64,000 nt of DNA, taken from positions 16,720-80,719 of the forward strand of contig CAYPHL010000002.1 in assembly GCA_964410385.1 (NCBI GenBank), in the 5' to 3' direction. How positions within the stretch are numbered: the stretch's first letter is position 1; the number at the start of each line of letters is the position of its first letter. The notes beneath the pieces were generated by a model. That model searched no databases, was not told the origin of the DNA, and was given only the letters and a program-made list of their open reading frames with translations. Below, in pieces: positions 1 through 59,638 of this stretch. The position numbers and the translations under genes are program-made. The stretch comes from an uncultured Rikenellaceae bacterium (GTDB taxonomy: Bacteria; Bacteroidota; Bacteroidia; Bacteroidales; VadinHA17).

Positions 1-2838
1 CCGCCGCCACCCTTGCTTCCTTCATCAGAAACAGCTGTAAGGAAGGTTGAGATACATGATGCAAATGACATAAAGCGCTGGTACTGGAAAGCGAATGACG
101 GTATAAGGGAAACTACATGGCCTGGCGTTTATAATATGTCACGGCTGCCGGGCAGATATGATTATTTTGTTCTGCCCGACTGGGATTGTTATTCCGGCTC
201 CGGCCAGACAGTAAGGTTCACTCTTCCGGACGAGCAGTGGAATCACATCGAGATGTGGGGCAAAGCCTGGGGTCAGCTTACCCTGGAAGATGAAAACGGA
301 CCTGACTTTACTTTCGGCGTCAGAAGACAGGATCAGATAAAGTCTTTTCATCATCTGGCTGTATCTGAAAGGGGCGGTGTTGTCCGGTTCGATAATGCCC
401 TTATTGAAGAACCAATCGGGTCATTTGAAGTTTATAATATTGTTAGTGGTAGCGCACCTGAGGGATCTGCAAGTGAAACATTCATCGCAAAACCTTTTAT
501 GTCGACCCCTGAAAATAAATCCCTGAATGATGTTATCTCTTTCATCAAAGGGCGTTATCCGGCAGATGAAAGGGCCATGATGACCGGCGTACGGGAAGGA
601 AATGCCGGTAAATCCACAAATGAAAATCCGGATAGTGACATGCTACCTTTTGTACACATATTGATACCATATACAGCAAGTAAGGACAGAGGACTTGATG
701 GAATTGAAATTAGATTGCCTTCGCTGAATGTCAGCCCGACACACAGCGGTGTATATCCTGTTAATATAAGGATAAAGGATCTGTTGTGGCCCATGCGCGA
801 TCTGGCTGATTTCAGTTTTTCCGTAAAACCCGGAGAAGCTCCGGTATTGTGGATAGACACACGTGACAGGATACTGCCTCCGGATAAAGCTCTTTATCTG
901 ACTGTTGCCGGTGCCGGAAGAGATCTCACTACTGCGATGCTTTCAGGAACAAAGATCAGGCTGGTATTTAAAACTGCAGAGAACTCCTTAAATGAACATG
1001 TTACGGATCGTTTCACCCAGGTACGTGATTTGTATGCGCATATTGTTGAAGAGAGACCTGTTACCCCCAGATTAAATCTATATAACCGTTTTATATCGGA
1101 TTGTAACGACCTTTTGTCGGTACAATCCGATCACTGGCTTACACAGACATACAGGTATGCTCTCACCGGGGAAAACAGACCGGAATATAAAATACCTGAA
1201 GCGCCTGAGGGTATTCCTGAATGGGCATTCCTTCAGATAGAATATCTCAAAAAGCTTGAAAAGATAGCATCATATTATATTGATAACAGGCAGATAGCCA
1301 ACGGGGAATTCGGGGGCGGCCTTTCTGATGACGGTGATCTGACAAATATGTGGCCGGGTATGGCATTCCTGGGCATTGATCCTGATAAATTGCTTAAATC
1401 GCTCCTGCTGCAAATGTCAGCATACTATGATCAGGACCGTCCCTCAGATGAAGCCGGACTGAAACAGCGCAGTCTGCCTTTATTTACAAACGGACTGGCT
1501 ACCATTTTTACTGATGAACTGCATTCACTTGAAGAAGGGATCCAGGTAGTCGCTCAATGTATGCTTCTCGATTACGGAAATCCTCTGCATATTGAACGTG
1601 GAATGGAAACAGCCTCCAGGATGCTGAACGATATTACACAGGTTAATGATAAAGGTCATCGTCACTTCAGATCAAGATTTTACAGCGGAACACGAATTGC
1701 CGGAGAAGATCCGTGGCAGTGGTCCGTAAATCATTCATATCATGTCCTTCAGCCTGCATATCTTCTTGCCCGTTATAATGGTAACCCGCAGCTTATCAAA
1801 ATGATCACTGAACTTGCTGATGCTTTGCTTGATCATTCGGAAGACGGGAAATTACTTACCGAAATTAATTTTTCAACCGATGAGTCGAGGGACGATACGG
1901 GAAACAGGGGCAAGCCATGGTCGCTATTCCTGGCAGCATGGAAGCTCACAGGTAACAAAAAATATCTTGATCCTCTGCCTCAGAACTTCTTTTATAACCG
2001 GGATTTTAACATAAAAAAAATTGCAGATAATTACAGGAATGAAATTTCAAACCTCGGGATCCGCGAATATATAAATACCGAAGGAAGCTTATGGATCGAC
2101 AGGATATCATCATTCAACCCGGTAATTCAGGAAGACCGTCTGGGAGGGGTTGCATTAACAAGAACAAATATCCTTTATCCCATGAATCGTGTAAGCTGGA
2201 AATTTAAGGCACCGGCATCATATGAAAGTACGGCTGTATTTGTTCAGGAGTCCGGACCGGAAAAGATAAAGATAATAGCATTTAATCTGGAAAATGATCC
2301 AGTGAAGGCTGAAATGACACTCTGGGATGTGATTCCGGGAAAGTGGAGGATGACTGTGGGCATTGATACGGATGATGATCAGATACCAGATACCGACCTC
2401 GGTGAATCATCTGTTGTTACCGGCAGGGGAGAGGCGGTGGATCTTAATTTTGTGCCCCTAAAAAACACTATAATAACACTTGAGCTTAAAGAGCCTTCGG
2501 ATCAGGGATACTGGGAACTTGCGGATATTGCCATCGGCAAAGAGGATATTACGGTTTCAGAAAATGAAATTACAGTTCGTGTACATAACATCGGAGCAAT
2601 AATTTCTCCGGAAACTGAAATAGTTGTTACGGATGCGAAAGGAAAACGGATAGGTTCCGCATCGGTAACTGCCATTGATGCACCGGCCGATCTAAAACCA
2701 AAGCATACAGATATCAGGATCAAAATCCCTTCGGGGAACGGATATTCAGCCTCAAAGTTCGAACTTGATCCTGACCACAGGATAAATCAGATCACCCGTA
2801 AAAACGACTCAATAAGCTGGCAATTACTAACACCGTAA
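1..2838 (+). CDS. large hypothetical protein, 5' end cut by the window edge
   Basis: The frame is open from base 1 to TAA 2836-2838. The track's first 'M' (13) is a TTG, so the true start is probably upstream of the window. More than 940 aa, with no catalytic motif I can name. Confidence 0.6.
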   Translation, partial: PPPPLLPSSETAVRKVEIHDANDIKRWYWKANDGIRETTWPGVYNMSRLPGRYDYFVLPDWDCYSGSGQTVRFTLPDEQWNHIEMWGKAWGQLTLEDENGPDFTFGVRRQDQIKSFHHLAVSERGGVVRFDNALIEEPIGSFEVYNIVSGSAPEGSASETFIAKPFMSTPENKSLNDVISFIKGRYPADERAMMTGVREGNAGKSTNENPDSDMLPFVHILIPYTASKDRGLDGIEIRLPSLNVSPTHSGVYPVNIRIKDLLWPMRDLADFSFSVKPGEAPVLWIDTRDRILPPDKALYLTVAGAGRDLTTAMLSGTKIRLVFKTAENSLNEHVTDRFTQVRDLYAHIVEERPVTPRLNLYNRFISDCNDLLSVQSDHWLTQTYRYALTGENRPEYKIPEAPEGIPEWAFLQIEYLKKLEKIASYYIDNRQIANGEFGGGLSDDGDLTNMWPGMAFLGIDPDKLLKSLLLQMSAYYDQDRPSDEAGLKQRSLPLFTNGLATIFTDELHSLEEGIQVVAQCMLLDYGNPLHIERGMETASRMLNDITQVNDKGHRHFRSRFYSGTRIAGEDPWQWSVNHSYHVLQPAYLLARYNGNPQLIKMITELADALLDHSEDGKLLTEINFSTDESRDDTGNRGKPWSLFLAAWKLTGNKKYLDPLPQNFFYNRDFNIKKIADNYRNEISNLGIREYINTEGSLWIDRISSFNPVIQEDRLGGVALTRTNILYPMNRVSWKFKAPASYESTAVFVQESGPEKIKIIAFNLENDPVKAEMTLWDVIPGKWRMTVGIDTDDDQIPDTDLGESSVVTGRGEAVDLNFVPLKNTIITLELKEPSDQGYWELADIAIGKEDITVSENEITVRVHNIGAIISPETEIVVTDAKGKRIGSASVTAIDAPADLKPKHTDIRIKIPSGNGYSASKFELDPDHRINQITRKNDSISWQLLTP

Positions 2839-2970
2839 CGCCCTAATGCCCTAATACCGTAACACCATAACGTCGTTGCGCCCCTGCGTCTCTGTGCCTT
2901 TGTGCCACTGCGCCGTTGAACCCCTGCACCCTTTTGCCGTTGCACCGTTGCGCCGTTGCGCCTCTGCACC
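2833..2970. repeat. degenerate 8-bp tandem array (about 17 units: CCNTAANN x5 then CCNNTGNN x12)
   Basis: Read directly: ccgtaacg ccctaatg ccctaata ccgtaaca ccataacg tcgttgcg cccctgcg tctctgtg cctttgtg ccactgcg ccgttgaa cccctgca cccttttg ccgttgca ccgttgcg ccgttgcg cctctgca. The first unit overlaps the TAA of the upstream CDS. Confidence 0.9.
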
Positions 2971-8995: not shown

Positions 8996-9022
8996 GGGCT
9001 GCGGATGGCAGCCCTTTTTTTT
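8996..9022 (+). terminator. rho-independent terminator
   Basis: GGGCTGC-ggatg-GCAGCCC stem-loop followed by T8. It overlaps the stop codon of the convergent purL. Confidence 0.8.
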
Positions 9023-12000
9023 ACATGTTCTCTTCTATCCACCTGCGGGCATTTACAAATGCCTTTAACCAGGGAGTGACTTCATCTTTTTTCCTGTCTG
9101 CCGGATACCAGCCGCATTGCCATGGCAGGAAAGCCCTTTCAGGATGTGGCATCATTATAAGATGCCTGCCGTCATCAGAACAAAGCGCAGCCGCATCATA
9201 GTCAGAACCGTTCGGATTGGCCGGATAAGTATTATGGGAATATTTAACAGGAATGTTATATTTTTCCTCATTGTACGGCAACCTGAACTGCCCTTCACCG
9301 TGTGCAACCCAGACCCCGAGCTCCATGCCCGACAGATTGCCGAACATTACTGACTTGTTTTCCTGTATCCTTACATTGAGAAATATTGATTCAAACTTCC
9401 CCGATTTATTATGCAGGAGTTTTGGCATCTCTTCATGATCCGGACAGATCAGCCCCAGTTCAGCCATAAGCTGACAGCCATTACAAACTCCAAGTGAAAG
9501 AGTGTCTCTTCTTCTGTAGAAATTCTCAAGTGCTTTTCCAGCAGATCCGTTATATCTGAATGCTCCAGCCCATCCTTTGGCTGAACCGAGGACATCGGAA
9601 TTTGAAAAGCCTCCCACAAAAACTATCATACTGATGTCCTCAAGCGTCTCCCTGCCCGACATCAGATCTGTCATATGGACATCTTTCACATCGAATCCGG
9701 CAAGGTATAGCACATAAGCCATCTCACGGTCTCCGTTAACTCCCTTTTCCCTGATTATCGCAGCCTTTATACCACTCTTTTTCCTCCGTGAGGGTGAAAC
9801 ACCGAGTGACCTGAATGTCCAGTCATGTTTAAGGTTGAGGTTGAGGTTGAGGGGATGATTCTTATAGTTCAGGAATCGTTCGAGGGCAAGATCGGGCACG
9901 GTCTGCCGCCTGTCGAGAAAATAGGATGTTTTATACCAGATATCACGCAGGACATCAATATCATATGTTTCAGAAAAAGCGCCATGGGTGACTGTCAGGG
10001 TTCTTTCATTAACAGGATGACCTATTGCATAGTATGATATTCCATTTTCAAGAAGGCGTTCCGAGACATCATTCACATCCTTTACCTGTATTATAATTCC
10101 CGGATTCTGGCTGAAAAGTATCTTAACTGTATCAGCTTCATCAATTGCAGAAATATCAACAGATAATCCTCCGCTTGTGTTTGAGAAACACATTTCAAGG
10201 AGGGTTGTTACCATGCCTCCGGCAGAAATATCATGACCCGCCATTACCTTGTCTCCACGGATCAGTTCCTGTATACAATCAAATACTTCGGCGAAGTATA
10301 CCGGGTCCTTTACCGTAGGGACTTCATCACCGACACTGTTTAAAACCTGGGCAAAGCTGCTGCCTCCCGGCCTGAAAGAATCCCTGCTCATATCAATGTA
10401 CAGGATGCTTGAATACGGATCATTTACAATTACCGGTTCGATAATTCTTTTTATGTCATTTACTTCCCCTGAAGCGGAAATTATGACAGTACCCGGTGAA
10501 TAGACAACCATATCACTGTATTTCTGTGTCATCGAAAGGCTGTCTTTACCGGTTGGTATATTTATACCCAGTGCTATTGCAAAATCGCTGGCAGCTTTTA
10601 CTGCTGAATATAGCCTTGCATCCTCACCCTTGTTTTTACATGGCCACATCCAGTTTGCAGAAAGGGAAACACTTTTCAGGCTGTCGGTGAGAGGGGCCCA
10701 GATAATGTTTGTTAAAGCTTCGGCAATTGACAGGACCGATCCTGCTGCCGGATCCGCCAGAGCTGCTGCCGGGGCATGGCCTATGGATGTTGCCATTCCG
10801 TATCTGCCCTTATAATCAAGTGCAATAATCCCCGTATTATTAAGAGGAAGCTGAAGCGGTCCGGCACATTGTTGTTTCGCTATCCTTCCGGTTACCGACC
10901 TGTCCACCTTATTTGTAAGCCAGTCTTTGCAGGCAACCTCTTCAATGCTCAGAACCCTTTCAATGTACTCATTAATAAGATCCTGCCTGTATTCTACATT
11001 CCTGAATGATGAAGGTATTGTTACATCATTCATTACTGTTTTTGGAGGATCACCGAAAAGTGATTCAAGCTTTATATCAACGGGTTTTTCTCCGGTAACA
11101 GGGTTTAAAAGTGTAAACTGATGGTCGCCGGTTATTTCCCCAATCACGTAAAATGGCGCTCTTTCCCTCTCAGCGATCTTTCTGAGGATTTCAGCCGATG
11201 GTTTTTTCAATACGAGCCCCATCCGTTCCTGCGATTCATTACCTATTATTTCTTTTGCCGACAATGTCGGATCACCTACAGGTAATTTACTGATATCTAT
11301 TCTTCCTCCTGTCGCTTCAACAAGCTCCGACAGGCAGTTAAGATGTCCGCCGGCGCCATGATCATGTATCGAGATCACAGGATTCTTATCCATTTCTCCC
11401 AGGGCCCGTATCGCATTATAAACCCTCTTCTGCATCTCGGGATTGGCCCGCTGAACCGCATTCAGTTCAATGGAGCTATCGTACCTGCCAGTTTCCACTG
11501 ATGATACAGCCCCTCCGCCCATTCCTATCCGGTAATTGTCTCCGCCAAGCAGTATTATCAGATCCCCTTTTTGCGGACTGTTTTTTTCACTGTCAGCCAG
11601 CTTTCCTGTTCCTATCCCTCCGGCAAGCATTATGACCTTGTCATAACCATACAGTTTATTGTTCTCTGTATGTTCGAAGGTAAATAATGATCCGCAGATC
11701 AGAGGTTGTCCGAATTTATTGCCGAAGTCGCTGGCCCCGTTCGATGCCTTTATTAGGATATCTTCAGGTGTCTGGTAAAGCCATGGCCGTTCTTTTATGG
11801 CTTTTTCCCATGGCCGGCCACCTTCAGGACGAGGATATGAGGTCATATATACAGCAGTACCGGCAACAGGAAATGCTCCTTTTCCCCCGGCTATCCGATC
11901 CCGTATCTCCCCGCCTGTGCCTGTGGATGCTCCGTTGAATGGTTCCACGGTGGTAGGGAAATTATGCGTCTCGGCTTTCAGTGACAGAACAGCCCTGAAG

Positions 12001-12707
12001 TCTTTTATCCTGAAAAAGTCCGGTTTATCCTGAGTGACAGGTGCAAACTGTTCAATAACTGGTCCTTCAATAAACGCACAGTTGTCCTTATATGCCGAGA
12101 CAACCTTGTTGGGATTGGTCTTTGTTGTGAGCTTTATTAACTGAAACAGCGAACCATCCATTTCCTTACCGTCTATTATGAATGTCCCGTTGAATATCTT
12201 GTGACGGCAATGTTCGGAGTTGACCTGTGAAAATCCGAATACTTCACTGTCCGTAAGTTTCCTTCCAAGATCTGTACTTAATCTTTCAAGGTAATCAATC
12301 TCTTCTTCACTAAGGGCCAGTCCTTCAGTCTTATTGTATTCACGGATATTTTCAACAGCTAGTACCGGATCGGGCTTTCTTTCAATGGTGAACAGATCCT
12401 GACCGAGACTGTTGTAGATAGCCTGAAGCATAGGGTCCCAGACCGGGTTACCTGATAAGGGTACGAACTCTTCAATCCTTGAAATTCCTTCAATGCCCAT
12501 GTTCTGGGTTATCTCAACTGCATTTGTGCTCCAGGGAGTTATCATCTCCTTCCGGGGTCCTCTGAAACTGCCTGTCAGCCGGCTCTCACCAAGCAGCCTG
12601 GCATTTCCGAACAGCCACTCAAGCTTTGATATCTGATAATTATCAAGTTCGGCTGATATCCCTGCCGCAATAATTGCTTTGTTATGATTTTCAAAGAATA
12701 AGATCAT
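9021..12707 (-). CDS. purL: phosphoribosylformylglycinamidine synthase, single-chain large type
   Basis: 1228 aa. It has duplicated AIR-synthase-like domains and a C-terminal glutaminase with the nucleophile motif GVCNGCQ and HGEG. Confidence 0.95.
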   Translation of the reverse strand: MILFFENHNKAIIAAGISAELDNYQISKLEWLFGNARLLGESRLTGSFRGPRKEMITPWSTNAVEITQNMGIEGISRIEEFVPLSGNPVWDPMLQAIYNSLGQDLFTIERKPDPVLAVENIREYNKTEGLALSEEEIDYLERLSTDLGRKLTDSEVFGFSQVNSEHCRHKIFNGTFIIDGKEMDGSLFQLIKLTTKTNPNKVVSAYKDNCAFIEGPVIEQFAPVTQDKPDFFRIKDFRAVLSLKAETHNFPTTVEPFNGASTGTGGEIRDRIAGGKGAFPVAGTAVYMTSYPRPEGGRPWEKAIKERPWLYQTPEDILIKASNGASDFGNKFGQPLICGSLFTFEHTENNKLYGYDKVIMLAGGIGTGKLADSEKNSPQKGDLIILLGGDNYRIGMGGGAVSSVETGRYDSSIELNAVQRANPEMQKRVYNAIRALGEMDKNPVISIHDHGAGGHLNCLSELVEATGGRIDISKLPVGDPTLSAKEIIGNESQERMGLVLKKPSAEILRKIAERERAPFYVIGEITGDHQFTLLNPVTGEKPVDIKLESLFGDPPKTVMNDVTIPSSFRNVEYRQDLINEYIERVLSIEEVACKDWLTNKVDRSVTGRIAKQQCAGPLQLPLNNTGIIALDYKGRYGMATSIGHAPAAALADPAAGSVLSIAEALTNIIWAPLTDSLKSVSLSANWMWPCKNKGEDARLYSAVKAASDFAIALGINIPTGKDSLSMTQKYSDMVVYSPGTVIISASGEVNDIKRIIEPVIVNDPYSSILYIDMSRDSFRPGGSSFAQVLNSVGDEVPTVKDPVYFAEVFDCIQELIRGDKVMAGHDISAGGMVTTLLEMCFSNTSGGLSVDISAIDEADTVKILFSQNPGIIIQVKDVNDVSERLLENGISYYAIGHPVNERTLTVTHGAFSETYDIDVLRDIWYKTSYFLDRRQTVPDLALERFLNYKNHPLNLNLNLKHDWTFRSLGVSPSRRKKSGIKAAIIREKGVNGDREMAYVLYLAGFDVKDVHMTDLMSGRETLEDISMIVFVGGFSNSDVLGSAKGWAGAFRYNGSAGKALENFYRRRDTLSLGVCNGCQLMAELGLICPDHEEMPKLLHNKSGKFESIFLNVRIQENKSVMFGNLSGMELGVWVAHGEGQFRLPYNEEKYNIPVKYSHNTYPANPNGSDYDAAALCSDDGRHLIMMPHPERAFLPWQCGWYPADRKKDEVTPWLKAFVNARRWIEENM

Positions 12708-12752
12708 GCTTCCGTGAGGTTGACAGAAATAGTTAGAATGTATTTATAAAAT

Positions 12753-12792
12753 ACGTATTATAATACGTATTAAAAAACGTATTATAATACGT
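12753..12792. promoter_or_regulatory. two copies of the perfect 16-bp palindrome ACGTATTATAATACGT, candidate tandem operator upstream of purL
   Basis: Copies at 12753-12768 and 12777-12792 (24 bp start to start), 46-85 nt upstream of the purL start (12707, minus strand). Confidence 0.5.
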
Positions 12793-12826
12793 AGATTTGA
12801 GAATATCTTGATACGACCGGTAGGAT

Positions 12827-15493
12827 TTACCTTGCATATTCGGTTTCATCTTCATCTTCTTCATCAGAGCCAACGGCTCCCGCATATTTTGCAGGATAGG
12901 GGGCATTACCTCTGGCTGAATACCAGAGTATCCTGTTAAGGAGGTCATCATGGCCTGAATCTACTCTGTCAAAAACAGGGAGCATGCTTTTTCTGGCAAA
13001 GTGCAGTTCGCGGCCGGAAAGTGAGGACAATGGCTTGTTCATTTCATCCAATGGAATGTTATTGGGAACTGAAATGTAAGGAGTAAGATCTGCCCTGCCT
13101 GTAAAACAATCATTCATAGGATTGGCAATTGCATCCTGGACGTTCATTGGCGGAATTCCAAGTATCTGCTCGATTGTTCTGACCATCGAAGGCTGTGTGT
13201 AAAACGTACTGATAGTTTTTTTCAACCTTGAATAAGGGCTTATTACAAGTGCGGCAGTGCGATAGGCGGAAACGTGGTCCCAGCCACCCTGTGAATCATC
13301 CTCAACAACCAGGATGACAGTATTATTCCAGAATCTGCTTTTTGATACAGCTTCGACAATTCTTCCTAGCGCCAGATCATTATCGGCAACAAAGGCACGA
13401 GGAGTGGGGTAGCCTGGCCTCGTTCCGGCAGTGTGATCATTAGGAAGAGCCATTATCATAAGTTCAGGCAGCTGATCACCTTCCATAGCCTCAAATTTTC
13501 TGAGCTCTTTTATGAACACGTCGGCCCTCATCTGATCGCTGAATACATGAGGTCCGTAAGAAGGGAAGTCCGGACTGAGAATAGCCCTTACAGGTTCAAT
13601 TGTTGTCCGGTTTTCAAATTCGACCCTTTCGCCATTCATATATTTCCTGTAAACATCGGTCCAGGTCACATTATCCTGATTAAACCAGGGAGATGCAGCT
13701 TCGCCATATATCCTTACGGATTTTCCGTGCTTCAATCCGTTATCCCAGATAAATCCTGTCGGTGCATAAACAAGAGCATCTTCCTGGACATGCGGATAGC
13801 TTCTGAACCATGCATACATGTTCTTCTCTATATAATCAGTAACTATCGATGCGTCAGTCCATTGATGGCCTTCTGCAGAACATTTTCCCGATGCATGGAA
13901 ATTGTCAAGAAGAAGGAATTCCCTGCAAAGTTTATGAGTATTCGGGGTAACCTCTTCTCCGTATGTACAAAGCGACGGATCCCCTTTCCCTTCTTTCATA
14001 TCGCCCAGGAGCTGATCATAAGTCCTGTTTTCTTTAATAATATACAATACATGTTTGAACAGCGAGGGCTCACCTATCCTGTCAGGTACGGGCTTCGGTG
14101 TCTGACCTGACCTGGGAGCTTCCCTTGCCAGGACTGCTCTTGAAAGGTCGTTTACAGCAATAACTGTATCTGTATAAGCTTTGAGATCGTGTTTCACGGG
14201 GACAGGAAATACCGATACCGAAGCCATCATGTGGTGGGAATTATAAATTATATTATCCCCGTCGGGATTTTTAAGGCCTATGTGTATGCCGTTTCCCTCG
14301 ATATTTCCTACATATATCATCCCGGATGAAGTGATACAAATAGCTGACGGATAAGCTCCTGTAGGAATGAATCCGGTAACGGTGCTCGCTTTTAACCTGC
14401 TTTTCCTGGCTGCTTTCTTACCAAGAGAAACTACTGCAAGGGCATTGTCCATTCCATTTGCAACATATAGTGTATGCTGATCATGAGACAGGCATAATCC
14501 GTTTGGAGAATCTCCGAACCAGGGATTGATCTCAGGCTGAAGCCTGACACTTATAGTTTCTGTAACCCTGTCTATAGGGGTACTGATTACCGAAACATTA
14601 TCGCTGTTTGAATTGGTTACATAAATATATCTTCCTTTCGCGTCACTGATTATCTCATTCGGGTGTAATCCTGTTATGATATCTTTTATTACAAGACCGG
14701 TGGCAGGATCGATCACTGCTACACTTCCTTCCCTGGTAGCCCCGCCGGCATTATTATCCACCCTGGCCGCACCCCACGGGACCCCGGCAATATCCTTATC
14801 ATTTTCCTCAGGATACCTTCCTGCCCAGTTTGTTACATATATCTTTCCGGCTGCTTTCACAATACCGTAGGGAGCGACTCCGGGATAAGAAGTCCAGATC
14901 GTATCGCCTGTTACAAGATCCTGCTTAATTACTTTATTATTTCCGTTGAGTACTACATAAATAAACTTTTTGCCCGATTCTTTTGTTATAAGAACTTCAT
15001 TTGCAAGAGCGTAATCTGCTCCCTGATCAGGCATATAAGTGAAGATCCTTTCAAATCCGGCGATCACCCCGTTCCAGAAGGCTGATACGACAAATGATCT
15101 GTTATTGCTTCCGGTGGCGCTCCACCAGACTCTGGGACTGCCTTCGTCGATATCCCATAAGATTCCCGAGTAGGTATTACGTCCACCCCTCAGATCAGGA
15201 CTGAGGTCATTATAAAGAGTGTATTTTATCTTGTTATCTGCAGTACTTATGAAAACGATGCTGAATCTTTCCTCAACCGCAAGCCATTTTCCGTCTGGCG
15301 AGAGTGACATATCCATCACATGATTTTCGCGGGCTTCATTGCCAAAGACAATCTGCAGACCGGCGGGATTGACAAGCCTGTTATAAGGAAGCTGAAACTG
15401 CCGGGAATTTGTGGTTGTTCCTGGAACGACTGCGACCTGTGAATGTATTTCTGTGAAGATCAGCAAAAGGGAAAATACATATTTATATTTCAT
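12827..15493 (-). CDS. secreted beta-propeller (YVTN-like repeats) fused to a phosphoesterase (PLC/AcpA-type) domain
   Basis: Signal peptide. Repeated IYVTN/LYVANG propeller motifs in the N-terminal half. Phosphoesterase-family signature YIIKENRTYDQLLGD and a C-terminal metal-site region (PNDHTAG, EDDSQGGWDHV). Confidence 0.8.
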   Translation of the reverse strand: MKYKYVFSLLLIFTEIHSQVAVVPGTTTNSRQFQLPYNRLVNPAGLQIVFGNEARENHVMDMSLSPDGKWLAVEERFSIVFISTADNKIKYTLYNDLSPDLRGGRNTYSGILWDIDEGSPRVWWSATGSNNRSFVVSAFWNGVIAGFERIFTYMPDQGADYALANEVLITKESGKKFIYVVLNGNNKVIKQDLVTGDTIWTSYPGVAPYGIVKAAGKIYVTNWAGRYPEENDKDIAGVPWGAARVDNNAGGATREGSVAVIDPATGLVIKDIITGLHPNEIISDAKGRYIYVTNSNSDNVSVISTPIDRVTETISVRLQPEINPWFGDSPNGLCLSHDQHTLYVANGMDNALAVVSLGKKAARKSRLKASTVTGFIPTGAYPSAICITSSGMIYVGNIEGNGIHIGLKNPDGDNIIYNSHHMMASVSVFPVPVKHDLKAYTDTVIAVNDLSRAVLAREAPRSGQTPKPVPDRIGEPSLFKHVLYIIKENRTYDQLLGDMKEGKGDPSLCTYGEEVTPNTHKLCREFLLLDNFHASGKCSAEGHQWTDASIVTDYIEKNMYAWFRSYPHVQEDALVYAPTGFIWDNGLKHGKSVRIYGEAASPWFNQDNVTWTDVYRKYMNGERVEFENRTTIEPVRAILSPDFPSYGPHVFSDQMRADVFIKELRKFEAMEGDQLPELMIMALPNDHTAGTRPGYPTPRAFVADNDLALGRIVEAVSKSRFWNNTVILVVEDDSQGGWDHVSAYRTAALVISPYSRLKKTISTFYTQPSMVRTIEQILGIPPMNVQDAIANPMNDCFTGRADLTPYISVPNNIPLDEMNKPLSSLSGRELHFARKSMLPVFDRVDSGHDDLLNRILWYSARGNAPYPAKYAGAVGSDEEDEDETEYAR

Positions 15494-15560
15494 AGCGTTC
15501 AGTTTAAGGATTTAAACAGTATGATGCTTTCAATTTCCAGCAGGATTATCAGCTTTAAAG

Positions 15561-15595
15561 ATAAAAAAAAGAGACTGAATTTCCGGTTCAGTCTC
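15561..15595 (-). terminator. rho-independent terminator of the DUF3127 gene
   Basis: On the minus strand: GAGACTGAA-ccggaaa-TTCAGTCTC followed by T8. Confidence 0.8.
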
Positions 15596-15604
15596 ATATT
15601 CTTT

Positions 15605-15985
15605 TCAGAACGGCAGATCGCTCAGGTCGTCAATATCCGGCGGAAGGTCCTCAAGTTTAGGCTGCGGAGGAGCACCCTGGTTTCTTTCCGGGGATGACGC
15701 CCGCTCAATCTTCCAGGCATCCAGATTTGTAAAATAGTTTACTTTACCATCGCGTTCCCACCTGTTGCCTTTTATATTGAAGGTGACCTTAACTTCATCA
15801 TTAAGGAACGACTCATTTATAAGGTCACATTTGTCCTGTACAAGCTGGAATTTTATATAATCAATGAACAGAGCGGCTCCTCCCGACTCTTTCCTCTCGA
15901 TAACAAATTCGCGTTTACGGAATTTATCGCTTACCTGATTAACAGGTAAAATCTCAATGACTTTACCACTTATTTCAAATGCCAT
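15605..15985 (-). CDS. DUF3127-like OB-fold protein with an SSB-like acidic C-terminal tip
   Basis: N-terminus MAFEISGKVIEI...FRKREFVIE...VKVTFNIKGNRWERDGK is typical of the Bacteroidota DUF3127 family. It has a Pro/Gln-rich linker and ends in DIDDLSDLPF. Confidence 0.7.
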   Translation of the reverse strand: MAFEISGKVIEILPVNQVSDKFRKREFVIERKESGGAALFIDYIKFQLVQDKCDLINESFLNDEVKVTFNIKGNRWERDGKVNYFTNLDAWKIERASSPERNQGAPPQPKLEDLPPDIDDLSDLPF

Positions 15986-16014
15986 CCTGGTAAGTATATT
16001 TAATTAATGCTCTC

Positions 16015-16728
16015 TTAATTAAGAATATCAAGAAGTTCAACTTCAAAAATAAGGGTTGAGAATGGTTTGATCATTTCACCCATTCCATTTGCACCATAAG
16101 CTAAATTCTCAGGAAGATAGATCTTGAATTTTGATCCAACAGGCATCAGCTGCAACGCTTCAGTCCAGCCAGGAATTACACCCGATACCATGAACTGGAC
16201 AGGTTCACCCATTTTTACAGAAGACTGAAATTCTGTCCCGTCGATCAGAGTTCCTATATAGTGAACTTTTACCTCATTTTCAGCTGTGGGTTTGGGACCT
16301 GTTCCCATCTTAATGACTTCGTATTGTAATCCGCTGGGAGTAACAATGACTCCCGTCTTTTCTTTGTTTTTAGCAAGGAATGCCTCATTCTCAGCAATAT
16401 AGACTTTGTGTGTCTCCTTGTTAAGTTCTGCCTGTTTTGCCATCATTTCAGTTTCACGTTGGTTTAAAAACATCATTATAAATCCTCTTGCAACCTCGTC
16501 CGTCATTTCCGCTTTGCCTTTTTCTCCATCCGTCATTGCTTTTGCAACAACCATTGGATTGAGCCTGAGACTATCTGTGAGCAGTGCATTGTAATTTACT
16601 ATACCAAATGCATATGAAAGAGAATCTTCTTTTGTTTTAAGCTTTGAACCCTGAATTGCATTTTTGCCACATGATCCAATCATAATGGCAATCAATAAAA
16701 TTGGAACAACTATTCCCCTGATTTTCAT
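16015..16728 (-). CDS. FKBP-type peptidyl-prolyl cis-trans isomerase (FkpA/FklB-like lipoprotein)
   Basis: Signal and lipobox (IGSCG). C-terminal FKBP domain VKVHYIGTLIDGTEFQSS...GVIPGWTEALQLMPVGSKFKIYLPENLAYG. Confidence 0.9.
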   Translation of the reverse strand: MKIRGIVVPILLIAIMIGSCGKNAIQGSKLKTKEDSLSYAFGIVNYNALLTDSLRLNPMVVAKAMTDGEKGKAEMTDEVARGFIMMFLNQRETEMMAKQAELNKETHKVYIAENEAFLAKNKEKTGVIVTPSGLQYEVIKMGTGPKPTAENEVKVHYIGTLIDGTEFQSSVKMGEPVQFMVSGVIPGWTEALQLMPVGSKFKIYLPENLAYGANGMGEMIKPFSTLIFEVELLDILN

Positions 16729-16803
16729 TTTAGATATTTTTTAATTTAAGTTTGCGCAAAGATAATACTTTGAGCCTTGTAAAAAAGGATTGCTTACTTT
16801 TTT

Positions 16804-17460: not shown

Positions 17461-17478
17461 GGTTTCTTTTTTATTCGG

Positions 17479-42688: not shown

Positions 42689-43969
42689 ATGAAAGCAAAA
42701 ATCATTCCAATTATTGGCGTACTGACAATGGGGATCTTCCTTTTTAATTCCTGTGAAGATTCAACATATCGCATTTACACAGGAAATTCGCCTGTCTATA
42801 TGTCTTATGAAAACCTCAGAAAGGCGGTTAAGGTAGAGCAGAACGCAGAGCTTGAAAATCCCGGCAAGATCTATTTCAAGGACAATTATATATTCATTGT
42901 GGAAGAACTTAAAGGGATACATGTATATGATAACAGTAATCCTGCATCTCCTGTCAGAAAGGCATTTGTGAACCTTCCGGGAGTAGTGGATATTTCAATT
43001 TCGGGGTATATTATGTATGCCGATTCATTTGTTGACCTTGTTGTTCTTGATGTCCAGGATGTTAACAATATCCATGAAGCGGGAAGGATTAAAGATATTC
43101 TTCCATATACCGTACCTCCGGCCAATAATGATTATCCTTTAGCTTTTGTTGATGAGGATAAAGGTGTCGTAATTGACTGGGAGGTTGAGAAAATAAAAGA
43201 GAAAGTAAATCAGAACCGGAATCCCTATCCCATATTCTGGCTGAAGGCAGATTTTGCTGCGATGTCCAATTCATCAGGCAACTCTTCGGGAGTAAGCGGT
43301 GGTGGTGTAGGAGTAGGTGGTTCAATGGCAAGATTCGGGATAAAGGAAAATGTCCTTTATGTACTTGACCAGAATACATTAAAGGTATTTGATATTACAA
43401 ATAAGACCAGTCCCGTAAAACATAACGACCTTTATCCCGGATGGGGTGTGGAAACCATGTATCTTACAGAAAACACAATGTTCCTGGGAACAACAACAGG
43501 TATGGTCATTTTTGATATAAGTATTCCTCTTTCTCCACAGACCCGAAAATTCTTTTCACATGCCAGGAGCTGTGATCCGGTAATTGTTGATGATACGCTT
43601 GCATATATTACACTGAGAACAGGAACAACCTGCGGAGGCTCGACGAATACATTGAGTGTTGTAAATGTAAAGAACATTAATTCTCCTTCACTTGTAGCTA
43701 CCTATTCAATGACAAACCCTCACGGGCTGGGTAAGGACGGGGACCTTCTTTTTATTTGCGATGGCAATGCCGGACTAAAGATTTACGACGCTTCTGATCC
43801 GAAGACGATAAATAATCACCTTGTTTATACCTATCCCAATATCAATACCTATGACGTTATACCTCTGGGAAATGTCCTTGTCCTGATAGGTGATGACGGT
43901 TTATATCAGTATGATTATTCGAATGTACTGAATATACGGCTGATCAGTTCAATTCTGACGGAAGACTAG
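42689..43969 (+). CDS. LVIVD-repeat-like beta-propeller lipoprotein
   Basis: Lipobox LFNSC. Repeated motifs of the type YVLD...LKVFDI, GMVIFDIS and AGLKIYDASDP. Confidence 0.6.
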   Translation: MKAKIIPIIGVLTMGIFLFNSCEDSTYRIYTGNSPVYMSYENLRKAVKVEQNAELENPGKIYFKDNYIFIVEELKGIHVYDNSNPASPVRKAFVNLPGVVDISISGYIMYADSFVDLVVLDVQDVNNIHEAGRIKDILPYTVPPANNDYPLAFVDEDKGVVIDWEVEKIKEKVNQNRNPYPIFWLKADFAAMSNSSGNSSGVSGGGVGVGGSMARFGIKENVLYVLDQNTLKVFDITNKTSPVKHNDLYPGWGVETMYLTENTMFLGTTTGMVIFDISIPLSPQTRKFFSHARSCDPVIVDDTLAYITLRTGTTCGGSTNTLSVVNVKNINSPSLVATYSMTNPHGLGKDGDLLFICDGNAGLKIYDASDPKTINNHLVYTYPNINTYDVIPLGNVLVLIGDDGLYQYDYSNVLNIRLISSILTED

Positions 43970-44019
43970 GATGGTAGTATGGTCGTGCGGTCATGCGGTC
44001 GTGCAGTCGTGCGGTCTGG
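43969..44019. repeat. 8-bp tandem array (NNTGNGGT / GGTCGTGC units, about 6)
   Basis: aggatggt agtatggt cgtgcggt catgcggt cgtgcagt cgtgcggt. Starts at the last base of the TAG stop (43967-43969). Confidence 0.85.
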
Positions 44020-44057: not shown

Positions 44058-44168
44058 CCGTTGCCCCCCCTGTACCGTTGCGCCCCTGTACCATTGTACC
44101 ATTGCGCCCCTGTGCCATTGCGCCCTTGCGCCGCTGTACCATTGAGCCATTGCGCCGCTGTGCCATTG
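44058..44168. repeat. 8-bp tandem array (CCNNTGNN units, about 14), same unit type as 2873-2970
   Basis: ccgttgcg cccctgta ccattgta ccattgcg cccctgtg ccattgcg cccttgcg ccgctgta ccattgag ccattgcg ccgctgtg ccattg. Confidence 0.9.
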
Positions 44169-44224
44169 TTTATTTTAATTCTAAATTATCAACAAATAGA
44201 GTTACTCAGTTTTTTTTTAGTCTA

Positions 44225-47748: not shown

Positions 47749-47780
47749 AAAAAAGCCGGTTCAAACCGGCTTCTTTTTTG
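47749..47780. terminator. bidirectional rho-independent terminator
   Basis: A8-AAGCCGGT-tcaa-ACCGGCTT-cT6, directly after the hydA stop. Confidence 0.85.
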
Positions 47781-47785
47781 TCATT

Positions 47786-47864
47786 CAGTCTGTGCAGTCC
47801 TGCAGTCCTGCAGTCCTGCGTTGTTAGCCGAACCTTGCTTTGACTTTTGCCAACTGCCAACTGC
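47786..47864. repeat. bipartite tandem arrays: CAGTCCTG x3 (plus a degenerate copy), then GCCAACT x2
   Basis: Blocks at 47786-47818 and 47849-47864. The second unit is the reverse complement of the GTTGGCA unit at 32675-32695. Confidence 0.85.
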
Positions 47865-55609: not shown

Positions 55610-57430
55610 ATGAATAAGATAAAGTTACTCCTTAAATATATTGCACCTTATAAATGGCAGGCTTTTTACAGCGTGGTCTTCAATATTCTCAGCGCTGTTT
55701 TTGCCCTGATTTCATATACACTTGCCATTCCTTTCCTGAAAGTCATGTTCAACAGGGTCGATGTAATTCCTCATCCGGGAGAATTCCAGATGACTATCGA
55801 TTACGTTAGCTCAGCCGTAAAATACCTGCTCTCGCTTTTCATTGACCGCCACGGGCAGTCGGGTGCACTTCTGATCATAAGCATTGTCTTTGTTGTTGCC
55901 AGCCTTCTTAAAAACGGATTCATCTTTCTAGCCAACAACAGTATGGCATACCTGAGATCCTATACCGTACGGGACCTCAGGAAAAAAATGTACGATAAGG
56001 TACTTAAGCTTCCATTATCATATTTTACAGACGCTCGTAAGGGTGATATCATGACGAGGTTATCCAATGATGTCCAGGAAATCGAGGTTTCTGTAATGTC
56101 CTCCCTTACAATGCTTTTCAGGGATCCGATGTATATAATTATTTTCGTGATCTACCTGTTTATAAGCAGCTGGCAACTTACAATATACGCATTGCTTCTT
56201 CTGCCGGTTAGCGGCTGGCTGATCGGAAGGGTAAGCAGAACATTAAGATCTTCATCACTGGTACAGCAACAACAGCTCGGAAAACTTTTGTCAGTTGTTG
56301 AGGAGACACTTACGGGTCTCAGAATAGTGAAGGGATTTAATGCCGAAAAGAAGATGCAGGGGCAGTTCAGGACTATTAACGAGAAATACACTAAAATATT
56401 CCGCCGTGTGATCCGCAAATATTACCTCGCATCACCACTGAGCGAATTCCTCTCTACCATGGTGGTAATGGCTCTGATGTACCTTGGCGGCTTACTTGCA
56501 CTTAAAGGCGATACCAATATGACACCCGACAGCCTGATCGCATATCTGATAATCTTCTCCCAGATAATTCCTCCCGCAAAGAACATCACAACGGCATGGT
56601 TCAGCGTACAGAAAGGTATGGCTTCAATCGACAGGGTTGACCAGGTACTGGAAGCGGAGGAAAAGATAATGCAAAAGGAAAATGCAGTCAGGGTAAGGGA
56701 ATTCAGGGATAAAATTGAATTCAAAGGCGTATGGTATGGGTATAATGACGAACCTGTACTTAAGGATATTAACCTGACGATAAAGAAAGGCCAGACAGTA
56801 GCAATTGTCGGAAAATCAGGAGCCGGTAAATCAACACTTGCCGACCTGCTACCACGGTTCATCGATACGGATAAAGGAAATATACTGATCGACGGAGTGG
56901 ATATAAGGGACATGAACATTACCGACCTCAGGAGCCTGATGGGCATAGTAAGCCAGCATCCAATCCTTTTTAATGCCTCATTCACCGAAAATATTGCCTT
57001 TGGCTCAGACTCTCCCGATACTGGGGATGTTGAAAATGCAGCACGGATTGCAAATGCACACGATTTCATAACCGAAACCGAACAAGGGTATGAAAATAAT
57101 GTAGGAGAATCAGGAAATAAGCTCAGCGGCGGCCAGAAACAAAGAATCAGTATTGCCAGAGCTATTTTGACCAATCCGCCAATACTGATCCTTGACGAAG
57201 CAACTTCAGCGCTCGACACGGAGTCGGAACGGCTTGTACAGGACGCAATTCTGAAGCTTATGGAAAACAGAACATCTGTGGTCATAGCTCACAGACTTTC
57301 AACAATCCAGCATGCCGACCTTATTGTGGTGCTTGACGACGGGATGATTGTGGAACGGGGCACACATGCTGAGCTGATGAATAAGGAAGATGGTTTTTAT
57401 GCCCGGCTGCGGAGCTATCAGGCGATATAG
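55610..57430 (+). CDS. ABC transporter, fused permease/ATPase (MsbA-like exporter)
   Basis: Six-helix TMD, then Walker A GKSGAGKST, signature LSGGQKQR and Walker B ILILDEATSALD. Confidence 0.9.
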   Translation: MNKIKLLLKYIAPYKWQAFYSVVFNILSAVFALISYTLAIPFLKVMFNRVDVIPHPGEFQMTIDYVSSAVKYLLSLFIDRHGQSGALLIISIVFVVASLLKNGFIFLANNSMAYLRSYTVRDLRKKMYDKVLKLPLSYFTDARKGDIMTRLSNDVQEIEVSVMSSLTMLFRDPMYIIIFVIYLFISSWQLTIYALLLLPVSGWLIGRVSRTLRSSSLVQQQQLGKLLSVVEETLTGLRIVKGFNAEKKMQGQFRTINEKYTKIFRRVIRKYYLASPLSEFLSTMVVMALMYLGGLLALKGDTNMTPDSLIAYLIIFSQIIPPAKNITTAWFSVQKGMASIDRVDQVLEAEEKIMQKENAVRVREFRDKIEFKGVWYGYNDEPVLKDINLTIKKGQTVAIVGKSGAGKSTLADLLPRFIDTDKGNILIDGVDIRDMNITDLRSLMGIVSQHPILFNASFTENIAFGSDSPDTGDVENAARIANAHDFITETEQGYENNVGESGNKLSGGQKQRISIARAILTNPPILILDEATSALDTESERLVQDAILKLMENRTSVVIAHRLSTIQHADLIVVLDDGMIVERGTHAELMNKEDGFYARLRSYQAI

Positions 57431-57620
57431 AGGGACGGGGAGACGAAGGGAGAGTGGGAGATTAGGAGAGTGGGGGAGAGGGAGATGAGGAGAGAGTGGG
57501 TTGAGAAAAATGGGAGATGAGGAGAAGGGGAGATGAGGAGAATGGGAGAAGAGGAGTTGGGAGGTGAGAGATGAGTAACGGGCAAAGAATCCCTTCCGGG
57601 GAGGGGAAAGGGTTGGGTTA
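57431..57620. repeat. purine-rich (G/A) degenerate tandem-repeat block with G-tracts
   Basis: Starts right after the TAG at 57428-57430. Repeating gggagatgaggagaa-type units of roughly 15-16 bp. Contains GGGacGGGGagacgaaGGGagagtGGG (57432-57458). Confidence 0.85.
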
Positions 57621-57651: not shown

Positions 57652-59472
57652 ATGACCAGAAAAAGCATTCAGATTTTATTTGTTTTGATATTTATCCTGT
57701 TGCCGGTGTCACTTATGGCCCAGAAAGCAAAACATACATTTAGATTCAGTGCGACTGAATTTCTGCTTGATGATCTGCCTTACCAGATCATTTCCGGTGA
57801 ACTGCATCCGGCAAGGATCCCTGCAGAATACTGGAAGCACAGGATAAAAATGGCAAAAGCCATGGGATGCAATACAATTTCAGCTTATATTTTCTGGAAT
57901 TTCCACGAAAGTGAAGAAGGGGTATTTGATTTCACAAAAGACAACCATAACCTGGCTCAGTTCATAAAGACTGTCCAGGATGAAGATATGTGGCTCATCC
58001 TCAGGCCCGGTCCATATGTATGTGCTGAATGGGAACTGGGAGGTATACCTCCTTATCTTCTTCGCATACCGGATATAAAACTGAGATGTATGGATCCGCG
58101 CTATATGGCTGCAGCAGAAAGGTATATCGCCCGGCTGGCCGAAGAGATCAGACCTTATCTAATAACAAGAGGCGGACCTATACTAATGATCCAGATCGAA
58201 AATGAATATGGCAGCTTTGCGAATGACAGGAATTATTTGCAAAAGCTCAAAGAGCTCTGGGCTTCAAACGGTATAGATGTTCCTACATTTACGGGAGACG
58301 GAGCTACTCCTTATATGCTTGAAGCAGGTACTCTTCCGGGAAGCGCCGTTGGACTGGACCCGGGTAGCTCTGCTGCCGACTTTGAACTGGCTGCCAGAAT
58401 GAATCCCGGAGTTCCGGTTTTCAGCAGCGAGACTTATCCCGGCTGGCTTACCCATTGGGGTGAAAGCTGGGCACGCCCCGATACAGCAAGACTTATGAAA
58501 GAGGTTAAGTTCCTGATGGATAACCGTAAGTCTTTTAATTTCTATGTTATTCACGGTGGAACAAACTTCGGATTCACGGCCGGAGCCAATTCCGGAGGTA
58601 ATGGCTATGAACCTGATGTGACCAGTTATGATTATGATGCTCCGATTAATGAACAGGGCCGGCCAACATACAAATACCATGCACTGAGAAAGCTTATTGG
58701 ATCCTATCTTCCAAAAAAAGGAAAATTACCTGATATCCCCGATACAATACCTGCCATTGAGATACCGCTTATCTTCCCGACAAGATTTACTTCGGTCTGG
58801 GATAACCTTCCTCAGCCTGTTAATTCAGTAACTCCAAACAGTTTCGAGGCCTACGGTCAGGATTATGGTTTTATACTGTATCAGACAGAACTTATCGGAC
58901 ATAAAAAAGGAAAACTAACAGTAACCGATATACATGATTATGCTATCGTGTTTCTGAACGGGGAATATATCGGACGCCTCGACCGCAGAGAAGGGATCAA
59001 TACGATCGACCTGCCCGAAACAAAGTCTGAAAAACCTGTTCTCGAGATTCTGGTTGAAGGAATGGGACGTATAAATTTTGCCCAGCATCTTATTGACAGA
59101 AAGGGAATAACGGAACGCGTTACATTGAACGGAATGACACTTATGAATTGGAAGATTTATAAACTTCCAATGGACTGGAAATACATTTACGATCTGCGCT
59201 CATCAGGGAAAGTATTGAATAAACCCGGTATCTTCTTTAAAGGAAATTTCTCACTGGCAATTACGGGCGATACTTATTTCGACCTTTCAAACTATAAGAA
59301 GGGGATCGTCTGGGTAAATGGACATAACCTGGGCCGGTACTGGGAAATAGGTCCTCAGAAAAGACTATTCTGCCCCGAGTCTTACCTTCGGACAGGATTG
59401 AATGAAATCTTAATTTTTGACCTGCATCTGACAGAACCTAAGCCACTTCCGGCATTGAGGACACTGGAATAA
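57652..59472 (+). CDS. GH35 beta-galactosidase (secreted)
   Basis: Signal peptide. NTISAYIFWNFHE and the catalytic region MIQIENEYG. Confidence 0.9.
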   Translation: MTRKSIQILFVLIFILLPVSLMAQKAKHTFRFSATEFLLDDLPYQIISGELHPARIPAEYWKHRIKMAKAMGCNTISAYIFWNFHESEEGVFDFTKDNHNLAQFIKTVQDEDMWLILRPGPYVCAEWELGGIPPYLLRIPDIKLRCMDPRYMAAAERYIARLAEEIRPYLITRGGPILMIQIENEYGSFANDRNYLQKLKELWASNGIDVPTFTGDGATPYMLEAGTLPGSAVGLDPGSSAADFELAARMNPGVPVFSSETYPGWLTHWGESWARPDTARLMKEVKFLMDNRKSFNFYVIHGGTNFGFTAGANSGGNGYEPDVTSYDYDAPINEQGRPTYKYHALRKLIGSYLPKKGKLPDIPDTIPAIEIPLIFPTRFTSVWDNLPQPVNSVTPNSFEAYGQDYGFILYQTELIGHKKGKLTVTDIHDYAIVFLNGEYIGRLDRREGINTIDLPETKSEKPVLEILVEGMGRINFAQHLIDRKGITERVTLNGMTLMNWKIYKLPMDWKYIYDLRSSGKVLNKPGIFFKGNFSLAITGDTYFDLSNYKKGIVWVNGHNLGRYWEIGPQKRLFCPESYLRTGLNEILIFDLHLTEPKPLPALRTLE

Positions 59473-59638
59473 CGGAAGAGTGTGGAATGGGGGTTAAAAG
59501 GAGAGGGGGTGAAAAGGAGAAGGGGTGAAAAGGAGAAGAGGAGACTAAGAGCCGCAAAACCGCAAAGCCGAAACGCCGCAAAGCCGTAAAACCGCAAAGC
59601 CGCATAGCCGCATAGCCGCAAAGCTGCAAAGACTAAGA
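59473..59638. repeat. bipartite array: purine-rich ~16-bp repeats (59473-59551), then CCGCAAAG 8-bp units x10 (59552-59630) flanked by ACTAAGAG
   Basis: ggggtgaaaaggagaa repeats, then ccgcaaaa ccgcaaag ccgaaacg ccgcaag ccgtaaaa ccgcaaag ccgcatag ccgcatag ccgcaaag ctgcaaag. ACTAAGAG occurs at 59544-59551 and 59631-59638. Confidence 0.9.

Follow-up and report, generated by a model that had tools for sequence, protein, structure and literature searches.

Intergenic arrays of degenerate 7- and 8-bp units in an uncultured Bacteroidales genome probably belong to the long simple-sequence repeats

Results

Gene content and arrays of the window

The window analyzed here, a 64-kb stretch of contig CAYPHL010000002.1 from an uncultured Bacteroidales bacterium (assembly GCA_964410385.1), carries tandem arrays of degenerate 7- or 8-bp units in eight of its intergenic regions. 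The observation was confirmed, and the arrays turned out to be largely ordinary, i.e., a known kind of repeat seen here in a Bacteroidales metagenome-assembled genome (MAG). They probably represent long simple-sequence repeats with units of 5–11 nt (LSSR5-11), of which the short tandemly repeated repetitive (STRR) sequences are the best-known instance.

The window has the gene set of a polysaccharide-degrading anaerobe, with an [FeFe] hydrogenase, Hyp maturation proteins and an Mbh/Mrp complex; further genes encode GH35, GH88, RGL11, PurL and transketolase. The minus-strand cluster at 23430–36442 is Nuo-like in look and encodes a group-4 membrane-bound [NiFe]-hydrogenase/Mrp-type complex, comprising an MbhJ-like small subunit, a NuoC-like subunit, the NiFe large subunit, MbhD/E, MnhB, Mrp E/F/G and a HycI protease. 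Hyp maturation genes at 37326–41861 adjoin this cluster, and the synteny is kept in the related loci L209–L222.

Repeats in the window were called with Tandem Repeats Finder (TRF). Periods of 7 or 8 were found at 2827–2970, 17482–17598, 18674–18760 and 32585–32765 (loci 1–4) and at 43981–44016 plus 44058–44169, 47793–47864, 57448–57568 and 59490–59631 (loci 5–8). TRF also called the multiples 14, 16, 21, 24, 28, 35 and 40, with best scores at 16, 21, 24, 35 and 40. Our own lag-7/8 autocorrelation detector (threshold 16) returned 10 segments in the 64 kb, all within the eight loci claimed in a first-pass annotation, and none in 40 Markov-1 shuffles used as control. Both methods thus confirm the eight intergenic loci with 7–8-bp arrays.

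Unit types and copy numbers given below stem from TRF and a unit census, for A6 and A8a from TRF; A2 and A7 were also assessed by folding. Array A1 (2827–2970, plus strand) begins within the final codons and the stop (2836–2838) of a gene for a 941-residue protein and has six copies of AACNCCNT, followed by twelve of TGYRCCNN (equivalent to CCNNTGNN); its sense strand is C-rich. A2 (17479–17597, no strand assigned) occupies the divergent gap between a methyltransferase gene on the minus and a TIM-barrel/TAT gene on the plus strand. It joins eight CCGGCNN to eight CCGCANN units and is strongly self-complementary because CCGG is palindromic. A3 (18687–18760, minus strand) consists of ten GCYCTNN units, is purine-rich in sense and lies between the stop of an HAD hydrolase gene (18759, minus strand) and a bidirectional intrinsic terminator hairpin at 18659–18682 (no strand assigned), which adjoins the array from outside.

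A4 is tripartite and located on the minus strand within the hydrogenase/Mrp operon, flanked by the MbhJ/NuoB-like gene on one side and the NuoC-like gene on the other. A4a (32587–32670) contains twelve CTCANNN units as read on the plus strand, i.e., G-rich and C-poor NNNTGAG on the mRNA, with a higher-order period of 21, A4b (32675–32695) three perfect GTTGGCA copies, and A4c (32723–32765) six CCYYGCA units that abut the stop of the small-subunit gene (32765–32767). The first-pass annotation had placed an array inside an operon; this location stands, and the operon is the hydrogenase/Mrp-type one described above, not Nuo.

On the plus strand, A5a (43969–44019) has four to five GGTCRTGC units directly 3' of the stop of an LVIVD-repeat gene, and A5b (44058–44169), with fourteen CCNYTGYR units and a higher-order period of 24, precedes the [FeFe]-hydrogenase operon, whose NuoE-like gene is at 44305. 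A6 (47786–47864, minus strand) is found between the stop of an SNF2 gene (47893, minus strand) and a second bidirectional intrinsic terminator hairpin, again outside the array (47753–47772, no strand assigned). It combines 3.4 copies of TGCAGTCC (47793–47819) with TGCCAAC (47848–47864); the GCCAACT-type block proposed near 47849 has only 2.4 copies.

A7 (57431–57575, plus strand) is directly 3' of an ABC-transporter stop and upstream of GH35. It is C-free and built from GGGAGANN units in a 16-mer higher order. The array had been drawn up to 57620, which holds as far as 57575; the remainder, 57576–57620, is a C-run/G-run hairpin-like element (AATCCCTTCCGGGGAGGGGAAAGGGTTGGGTT, 57585–57620) instead. 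This element is missing in the relative L124. Similar CCCC...GGGG elements recur near GH35 in L125, L129, L133, L135, L136 and L137; they could form another family of small intergenic repeats or else be terminators that lack a U-tract. After the GH35 stop follow A8a (59473–59549, plus strand), three copies of the 16-mer GGGGTGAAAAGGAGAA, and A8b (59550–59631, plus strand), ten copies of AGCCGCAA.

Several relations noted at first pass were found again, namely the recurrence of CCNNTGNN at 2877 and 44058, that of CCGCACC at 17573 and 32725/32732, and the match of GTTGGCA (32675) to the unit at 47848, of which it is a rotated reverse complement. Arrays were also said to adjoin stop codons, and they do so at 2836–2838, 43967–43969, 57428–57430, 59470–59472, 18759 and 32765.

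Arrays are non-coding and distinct from terminators

Open reading frames (ORFs) that span the arrays gave no Pfam match, neither period (7 or 8) is divisible by 3, and the 8- and 16-bp indels between strains described below would shift the frame. We therefore conclude that the arrays are non-coding and that the predicted ORFs, as previously suggested, are translation artefacts; missing Pfam matches and frameshifting indels likewise rule out coding micro-ORFs. A crude ORF call made A3 coding; the Pfam-supported gene there is the minus-strand HAD hydrolase. A simple promoter or terminator role had been doubted as well, and rightly so, as A3 and A6 each have a stop on one side and a separate bidirectional terminator hairpin on the other, i.e., they belong to the 3' untranslated region (UTR) and are not the terminators themselves.

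Fixed cores and higher-order periods

With a GC content of 0.53–0.73 the arrays exceed the window (about 0.43), and their GC skew reaches +1.0, an extreme strand asymmetry. Elevated GC, strand asymmetry and composite blocks placed back to back had all been claimed and all hold, as does the longer period of the two purine-rich blocks, for which TRF fitted 16 best. Fixed cores with free positions are likewise borne out by the unit tables, which yield 2.0 bits per core position and 0–0.7 bits per free position. Variability is uneven over the unit positions, individually significant in A1b, A5b, A4a and A7, and with a combined p = 2.6e-4 when unique units are considered. The 78 transitions and 64 transversions counted among units are an ordinary substitution spectrum. 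Units are 82–100% identical in A4b, A6a and A8b; in A1b, A4a, A5b and A7 identity is 65–78% at the basic period and 85–93% at higher-order periods.

Fixed 4–5-nt cores with free spacers and extreme skew would fit a role at the DNA level, either as tandem sites for a nucleoid or regulatory protein that reads 4–5-bp cores or as non-B DNA (G-quadruplex, i-motif, H-DNA) that affects replication or transcription. Canonical G-quadruplex motifs (GGGGAAGGGGTGAAAAGGGGAAGGGG) in array A8 of L124 and the position of A2 in a divergent promoter region point the same way. However, the cores vary by array and lineage, and therefore no single protein could read them. Moreover, the 7–8-bp period mismatches the helical repeat, many of the related arrays lack G-runs and are A/T-rich (AAAAGAC, AGAAATT, GGAATTA), and relatives can dispense with the arrays. 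A DNA-level function thus appears very unlikely to us. The G-quadruplex was also dropped as a unifying property, given the many related arrays that lack G-runs.

Array length changes between strains in register with the unit

Arrays A1, A4, A5, A7 and A8 were recovered from other samples as well, in five to six independent assemblies. Array lengths, for which slippage variability had been envisaged, differ between strains by an 8-bp step in A1 and a 16-bp step in A5b, and A7 and A8 show block turnover. A5 was identical in L001 (99.8% identity to the window), and A4 of L206 (99.5%) was unchanged in length with three A-to-G substitutions, all within the gap. In L204 and L205 (at least 99.2% identity), A1 has exactly one additional 8-bp unit (GCCCTAAT), which is the sole difference in 291 nt around the array and the sole indel in the 8.5 kb compared. 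In L002 and L003 (about 90%), A5b is in place with its CC..TG core in register, 16 bp (two units) shorter and with different free positions; A5a is replaced by a different sequence, with the AT-rich flanks still about 95% identical. In L124 (92.5% nucleotide identity), the purine-rich 16-mer of A8 has expanded from about three to about eight copies and AGCCGCAA is reduced from 10 to about four, with intact junctions; at A7 a different unit, GACGAAGG, was amplified. These one-unit and block changes are the behavior of slipped-strand mispairing or unequal exchange. At 11747–11827, L124 has a further array, of period 7, between GH88 and the gene that follows (window 60846–60926).

Short-read assemblers can mis-size tandem repeats, and contigs ending inside arrays have been reported (MacGregor, PMC4679880), which would be compatible with an assembly artefact or chance low-complexity sequence. 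The first-pass annotation had named artefact as a way in which the arrays could prove uninteresting. In the data, the same loci appear across samples and pipelines (L001, L002, L003, L124, L204, L205, L206, L207) and change in unit register, which excludes an assembly artefact, and no array emerged from the 40 shuffles. Artefact or chance is therefore hardly credible.

A 9-bp direct repeat, GACTAAGAG (59543–59551 and 59631–59639), flanks the AGCCGCAA block of A8b and is kept in L124. By its sequence the pair resembles a target-site duplication, or the duplicated junction of an event that seeded the block. Together with unit types that occur at unlinked loci (CCNNTGNN, TGCCAAC, CCGCAC), it would be expected if the arrays were small mobile insertions, similar to miniature inverted-repeat transposable elements (MITEs) or templated, or their remnants or cargo, with target-site duplications. 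We consider this highly improbable. No terminal inverted repeats, no flanking duplications at the other blocks and no transposase nearby were found, and strains differ in unit-register copy number rather than in the presence or absence of whole elements. Moreover, the recurring units have just 7–8 nt and are common to different phyla, which convergence would produce, given how few such sequences are possible.

Period preference and recurrent array sites in relatives

The census covered 967 kb of the window and its relatives, with crude gene calls in the latter. Period 7 accounted for 35 and period 8 for 17 arrays, together 52 of the 72 short-period arrays, compared with 1–5 arrays for each other period from 4 to 13. 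Coding DNA was almost free of arrays, with three cases across about 0.9 Mb. In the window, arrays occupy 8 of about 24 gaps that measure 40 bp or more, about one third; in relatives the share is about 7%.

Searching metagenomes with the GH35 protein provided 80 loci of 98–58% identity. At 12 of the 18 loci with the ABC exporter directly upstream, the exporter-to-GH35 gap contained a period-7/8 array that immediately follows the stop codon. Each lineage has units of its own (GGGAGAnn, GTGAGTn, RTGAGGY, AAAAGWM, AGAAATY, GGAATTR). In a tree of GH35, unit families follow clades in part, and taxa without an array branch from within array-bearing groups; we therefore conclude that arrays have persisted for long at this site, with unit turnover and repeated loss.

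The hydrogenase operon offers a second recurrent site, the gap between the small-subunit and the 30-kDa gene. It holds the tripartite A4 in the window and twelve GRGACTTA units in L209, the closest long-contig relative. In L210 it measures 116 nt, purine-rich and non-repetitive, possibly a decayed array, and in L217 136 nt, AT-rich and non-repetitive. L214 and L220 have gaps of 7–8 nt without an array, so that the arrays are dispensable insertions into otherwise tight gaps. Within the same operon of L209 (14648–14744), GAGAGGT occurs twelve times about 70 nt upstream of an MnhB-like gene; this array reads as twelve tandem GAGGTGA, a perfect Shine–Dalgarno (SD) look-alike. Bacteroidota ribosomes sequester the anti-SD.

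Comparison with known repeat classes

According to the first-pass annotation, no named repeat class was known to fit these arrays. This claim fails, since the arrays match LSSR5-11, and STRR sequences and mixed heptamer arrays of Bacteroidetes have been described already. By the standard set at first pass, a match of this kind makes the arrays less interesting; however, the matched family is itself without established function. Mrazek and co-workers, writing in PNAS in 2007, are said to have attributed its abundance to a tendency to expand rather than to function.

According to the summary in PMC4679880, long simple-sequence repeats (SSRs) with 5–11-nt units were described with heptamers as the most abundant type, and polymerase slippage with an approximately 7-nt footprint was proposed as their origin (Mrazek et al. 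2007); the period counts given above agree with both. In Bacteroidetes, heptamer tandem repeats are the sole SSR class with a positive median over-representation (Huang & Mrazek 2014, PMC4060949, Table 2). The arrays of the window share with LSSR5-11 the head-to-tail 7–8-nt units at all eight loci (TRF), a length beyond compositional expectation (10 segments versus 0/40 shuffles), polymorphism in unit steps (A1, A5b, A7, A8) and a mostly non-coding location with the heptamer as commonest period (35 versus 17 versus 1–5). The class also occurs in free-living bacteria with larger genomes and has its heptamers over-represented in Bacteroidetes. However, surveys took perfect or near-perfect repeats, whereas the window arrays are mostly degenerate (65–85%), composite and of higher order, which suggests older arrays that diverged and were then re-amplified.

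Mazel and co-workers reportedly described the cyanobacterial STRR sequences in 1990. The window arrays resemble them in the approximately 7-bp units, composite blocks, strand asymmetry and intergenic or intercistronic position, hydrogenase operons included, and in being numerous in a genome; several arrays occur per few kb, and the build matches that of the loci from Anabaena (L052) and Nostoc. STRR are 7-bp repeats of filamentous cyanobacteria, of unknown function, and are found also between hupS and hupL (PMC2670836). The host here, in contrast, is no filamentous cyanobacterium; cluster mates of window proteins at 90% identity are labelled Bacteroidales MAGs. A cyanobacterial origin, suggested by the heptamers and the GC content of 43%, was rejected on the grounds of gene content and of these cluster names. 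Also, octamers are as common as heptamers in the window, and tandem dimers of STRR1 (CCCCAGT), STRR2 (TTGGTCA) and STRR3 (CAACAGT) were absent from both of its strands.

Within Bacteroidetes, intergenic heptamer arrays have been reported for Gramella, Aequorivita, Elizabethkingia, Flexibacter and Paludibacter, with mixed heptamer types; in Gramella, Aequorivita and Elizabethkingia, some arrays lie just 3' of stops, and orthologous gaps of close relatives are without them (MacGregor 2015, PMC4679880). The TAACTGA arrays of that work, found in Beggiatoaceae, cyanobacteria and five Bacteroidetes, are likewise intergenic heptamers in Bacteroidetes, but the window arrays are GC-rich and mostly adjacent to stops rather than immediately 5' of starts, and TAACTGA occurs in the window in 11 single copies, none in tandem. 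Since neither STRR1–3 nor TAACTGA is tandemly repeated here, we assign the arrays to the generic class and not to those unit families.

Such arrays extend beyond the lineage of the window, to Anabaena, Nostoc, Acidobacteriota, Verrucomicrobiota and other Bacteroidota loci; confinement to the window, raised at first pass, does not apply. In Anabaena azotica (L052), eight arrays fall within 8 kb, and STRR1 units, STRR3 units and TAACTGA are among them. The composite, degenerate and strand-asymmetric build was found also in MAGs or genomes of Nostoc, Phormidium, Acidobacteriota, Thermoanaerobaculia, Verrucomicrobiota and Bacteroidota, and one of these MAGs carries the STRR2 unit. Arrays of GGTCATT, a rotation of STRR2 TTGGTCA, and GGGTCATT octamers occur in Bacteroidota, at 6825–7089 of L053, a Bacteroidetes MAG from Lac Pavin, and in L013 and L028 (Mucilaginibacter); the A5a unit GGTCRTGC is similar. 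A small set of units is shared by different phyla, as MacGregor (PMC4679880) observed for TAACTGA. Seven tandem copies of CCNNTGNN were tried as a definition of a family and rejected as too generic, as a genome scan gave mostly perfect octamer microsatellites in every phylum.

Contingency SSRs of phase variation differ from the window arrays, which are degenerate, lie downstream of stops and are flanked by housekeeping or metabolic genes (hydrogenases, HAD, ABC exporter, GH35, GH88). Hallmarks of structured RNAs, of clustered regularly interspaced short palindromic repeats and of repetitive extragenic palindromic elements or MITEs were not found in the window, i.e., Rfam gave 0 matches at gathering threshold over the 64 kb, and there were no spacers, no terminal inverted repeats and no consistent fold. 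Eukaryotic satellites and minisatellites are similar in working, not in membership, with unit divergence and multi-unit re-amplification, concerted evolution and lineage-specific variants; the window arrays differ in their size of tens to 200 bp, their prokaryotic host and their location in transcribed gaps.

Discussion

As the unit-register differences between strains show, it is slipped-strand mispairing or unequal recombination that creates the arrays and makes them longer or shorter. Ordinary point mutation would then make units diverge, and multi-unit blocks of 14–40 bp would be re-amplified, multiplying a few founder variant positions. The look of a fixed core plus free positions would thus result from early variant positions copied along with the blocks. 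Arrays would accumulate in the least constrained DNA, just past stops, in 3' UTRs and in intercistronic gaps, and would keep out of coding DNA, in which steps of 7/8 nt cause frameshifts, and out of the 30–100 nt before start codons. In co-directional gaps, the array is closer to the upstream stop than to the downstream start in roughly 23 of 32 cases, which would fit arrays that occupy the least constrained part of a gap. At permissive sites arrays persist for long, with satellite-like concerted turnover of units and repeated loss. Mostly they may be by-products without a dedicated function, and a survival filter may favor purine-rich, C-poor sense strands. Such a filter would remove arrays that harm expression, for instance by attracting Rho to untranslated, C-rich RNA or by base-pairing of pyrimidine tracts with initiation regions rich in purines. 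We consider this slippage and by-product account as a whole likely. A dedicated RNA or DNA function is disfavored, since relatives can do without the arrays, which have neither a sequence nor a structure in common.

Several points weigh against this account. Bacteria usually delete useless DNA, so that long persistence is slightly unexpected. The 67% occupancy of the ABC-to-GH35 gap is far above the background of about 7% per gap, and together with the second recurrent intra-operon site may be more than neutral tolerance. Uneven per-position variability is a further point, which founder effects might explain. The census, moreover, covered 64 kb of the source MAG plus relatives. Finally, in co-directional gaps the mean sense purine content is 0.65 in arrays versus 0.51 in array-free gaps (Mann-Whitney p = 5e-6), a bias that hints at selection at the RNA level. 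When orthologous sites were collapsed and the arrays of the hydrogenase-operon comparison added, about 12 purine-rich versus 3 pyrimidine-rich arrays were counted (binomial p ~0.035). These orientation statistics rest on few independent sites, and we gave less weight to a strong claim of sense bias because a single orthologous gap contributed most of the signal.

The bias in sense-strand purines is what one would expect if the arrays were selected cis-acting RNA elements in 3' UTRs or intercistronic spacers. They might be arrays for single-strand binding proteins of the S1, cold-shock or RRM type, platforms for ribosome standby or Rho-proof, C-free operon spacers, with A1 and A5b as Rho loading sites between transcription units. 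Every clearly intra-operon array (A4, A7, A8a and those at 10490 and 14648 of L209) is indeed G/A-rich and C-poor in sense, and the two arrays that are C-rich in sense, A1 and A5b, lie between apparently separate transcription units. Also, the ABC-to-GH35 gap of 12/18 relatives carries an array. Literature proposals exist for transcript stabilization or translational coupling by STRR and for binding of S1, Csp or CsrA to TAACTGA repeats. A7 had zero folding energy, in agreement with a single-stranded element; A2, in contrast, was strongly structured (z = -3.8 and -6.5), and the remainder folded like background. A folding signal common to all arrays was not found, and the unstructured spacer was rejected as a unifying property, with A7 alone free of structure. 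No sequence property is common to all arrays either, and at one and the same site different lineages have entirely different units. Furthermore, close relatives with gaps of 7–90 nt are array-less, which makes the arrays dispensable, the orientation bias is modest after collapsing orthologous sites, A2 lies in a divergent and probably untranscribed or promoter region, and Rfam gave no match. On balance we regard selected RNA elements as unlikely.

Alternatively, the purine-rich arrays in transcribed gaps could be maintained as Rho-resistant unstructured spacers or as standby or protein-binding platforms that uncouple or tune neighboring cistrons, with selection acting on composition and periodicity and not on sequence. 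This would explain why unrelated units recur at the ABC-to-GH35 and small-subunit-to-30-kDa gaps, and also the SD look-alike units, GAGGTGA (twelve copies in L209) and GGAGGTGA in A7. Bacteroidales ribosomes largely ignore SD pairing, and the heptamer-rich phyla, Cyanobacteria and Bacteroidota, appear to be low-SD phyla as well, an overlap that such maintenance would account for. We nevertheless find it quite doubtful. A tolerance filter or a weak RNA-level role may contribute.

The slippage account finds unusually clean natural evidence here, with single-unit slippage among near-clonal strains, block turnover at about 92% identity and array sites that persist across genus-level divergence with replacement and loss of units. 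An uncultured anaerobic Bacteroidales lineage carries dense STRR-like 7–8-nt arrays even inside essential operons. For practical work, the arrays entail spurious ORFs and broken short-read assemblies and are potential strain markers (variable-number tandem repeats) in metagenomes. Whether such arrays do anything, and why units have 7–8 nt, is a question that has stood since 1990, and the two recurrent orthologous sites are defined test cases for it.

Other features of the window

An AT-rich tandem repeat of 12/24 bp, unrelated to the 7/8-nt arrays, is located at 12747–12793, about 40 nt upstream of the start of purL (9021–12707, minus strand). It contains the palindromic box ATACGTAT (12751 and 12763) and AACGTATT variants and could, by its sequence and position, be a candidate operator for purine regulation. 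For the RGL11-like ORF (60852–62918), the true start probably lies downstream of the listed TTG; the ATG near 60872, after which comes a signal-peptide-like stretch, is more plausible, and the apparent 2-nt gap after GH88 is affected accordingly. L124 carries an insertion of about 4.5 kb (13931–18492) that is missing in the window at 62911–63005.

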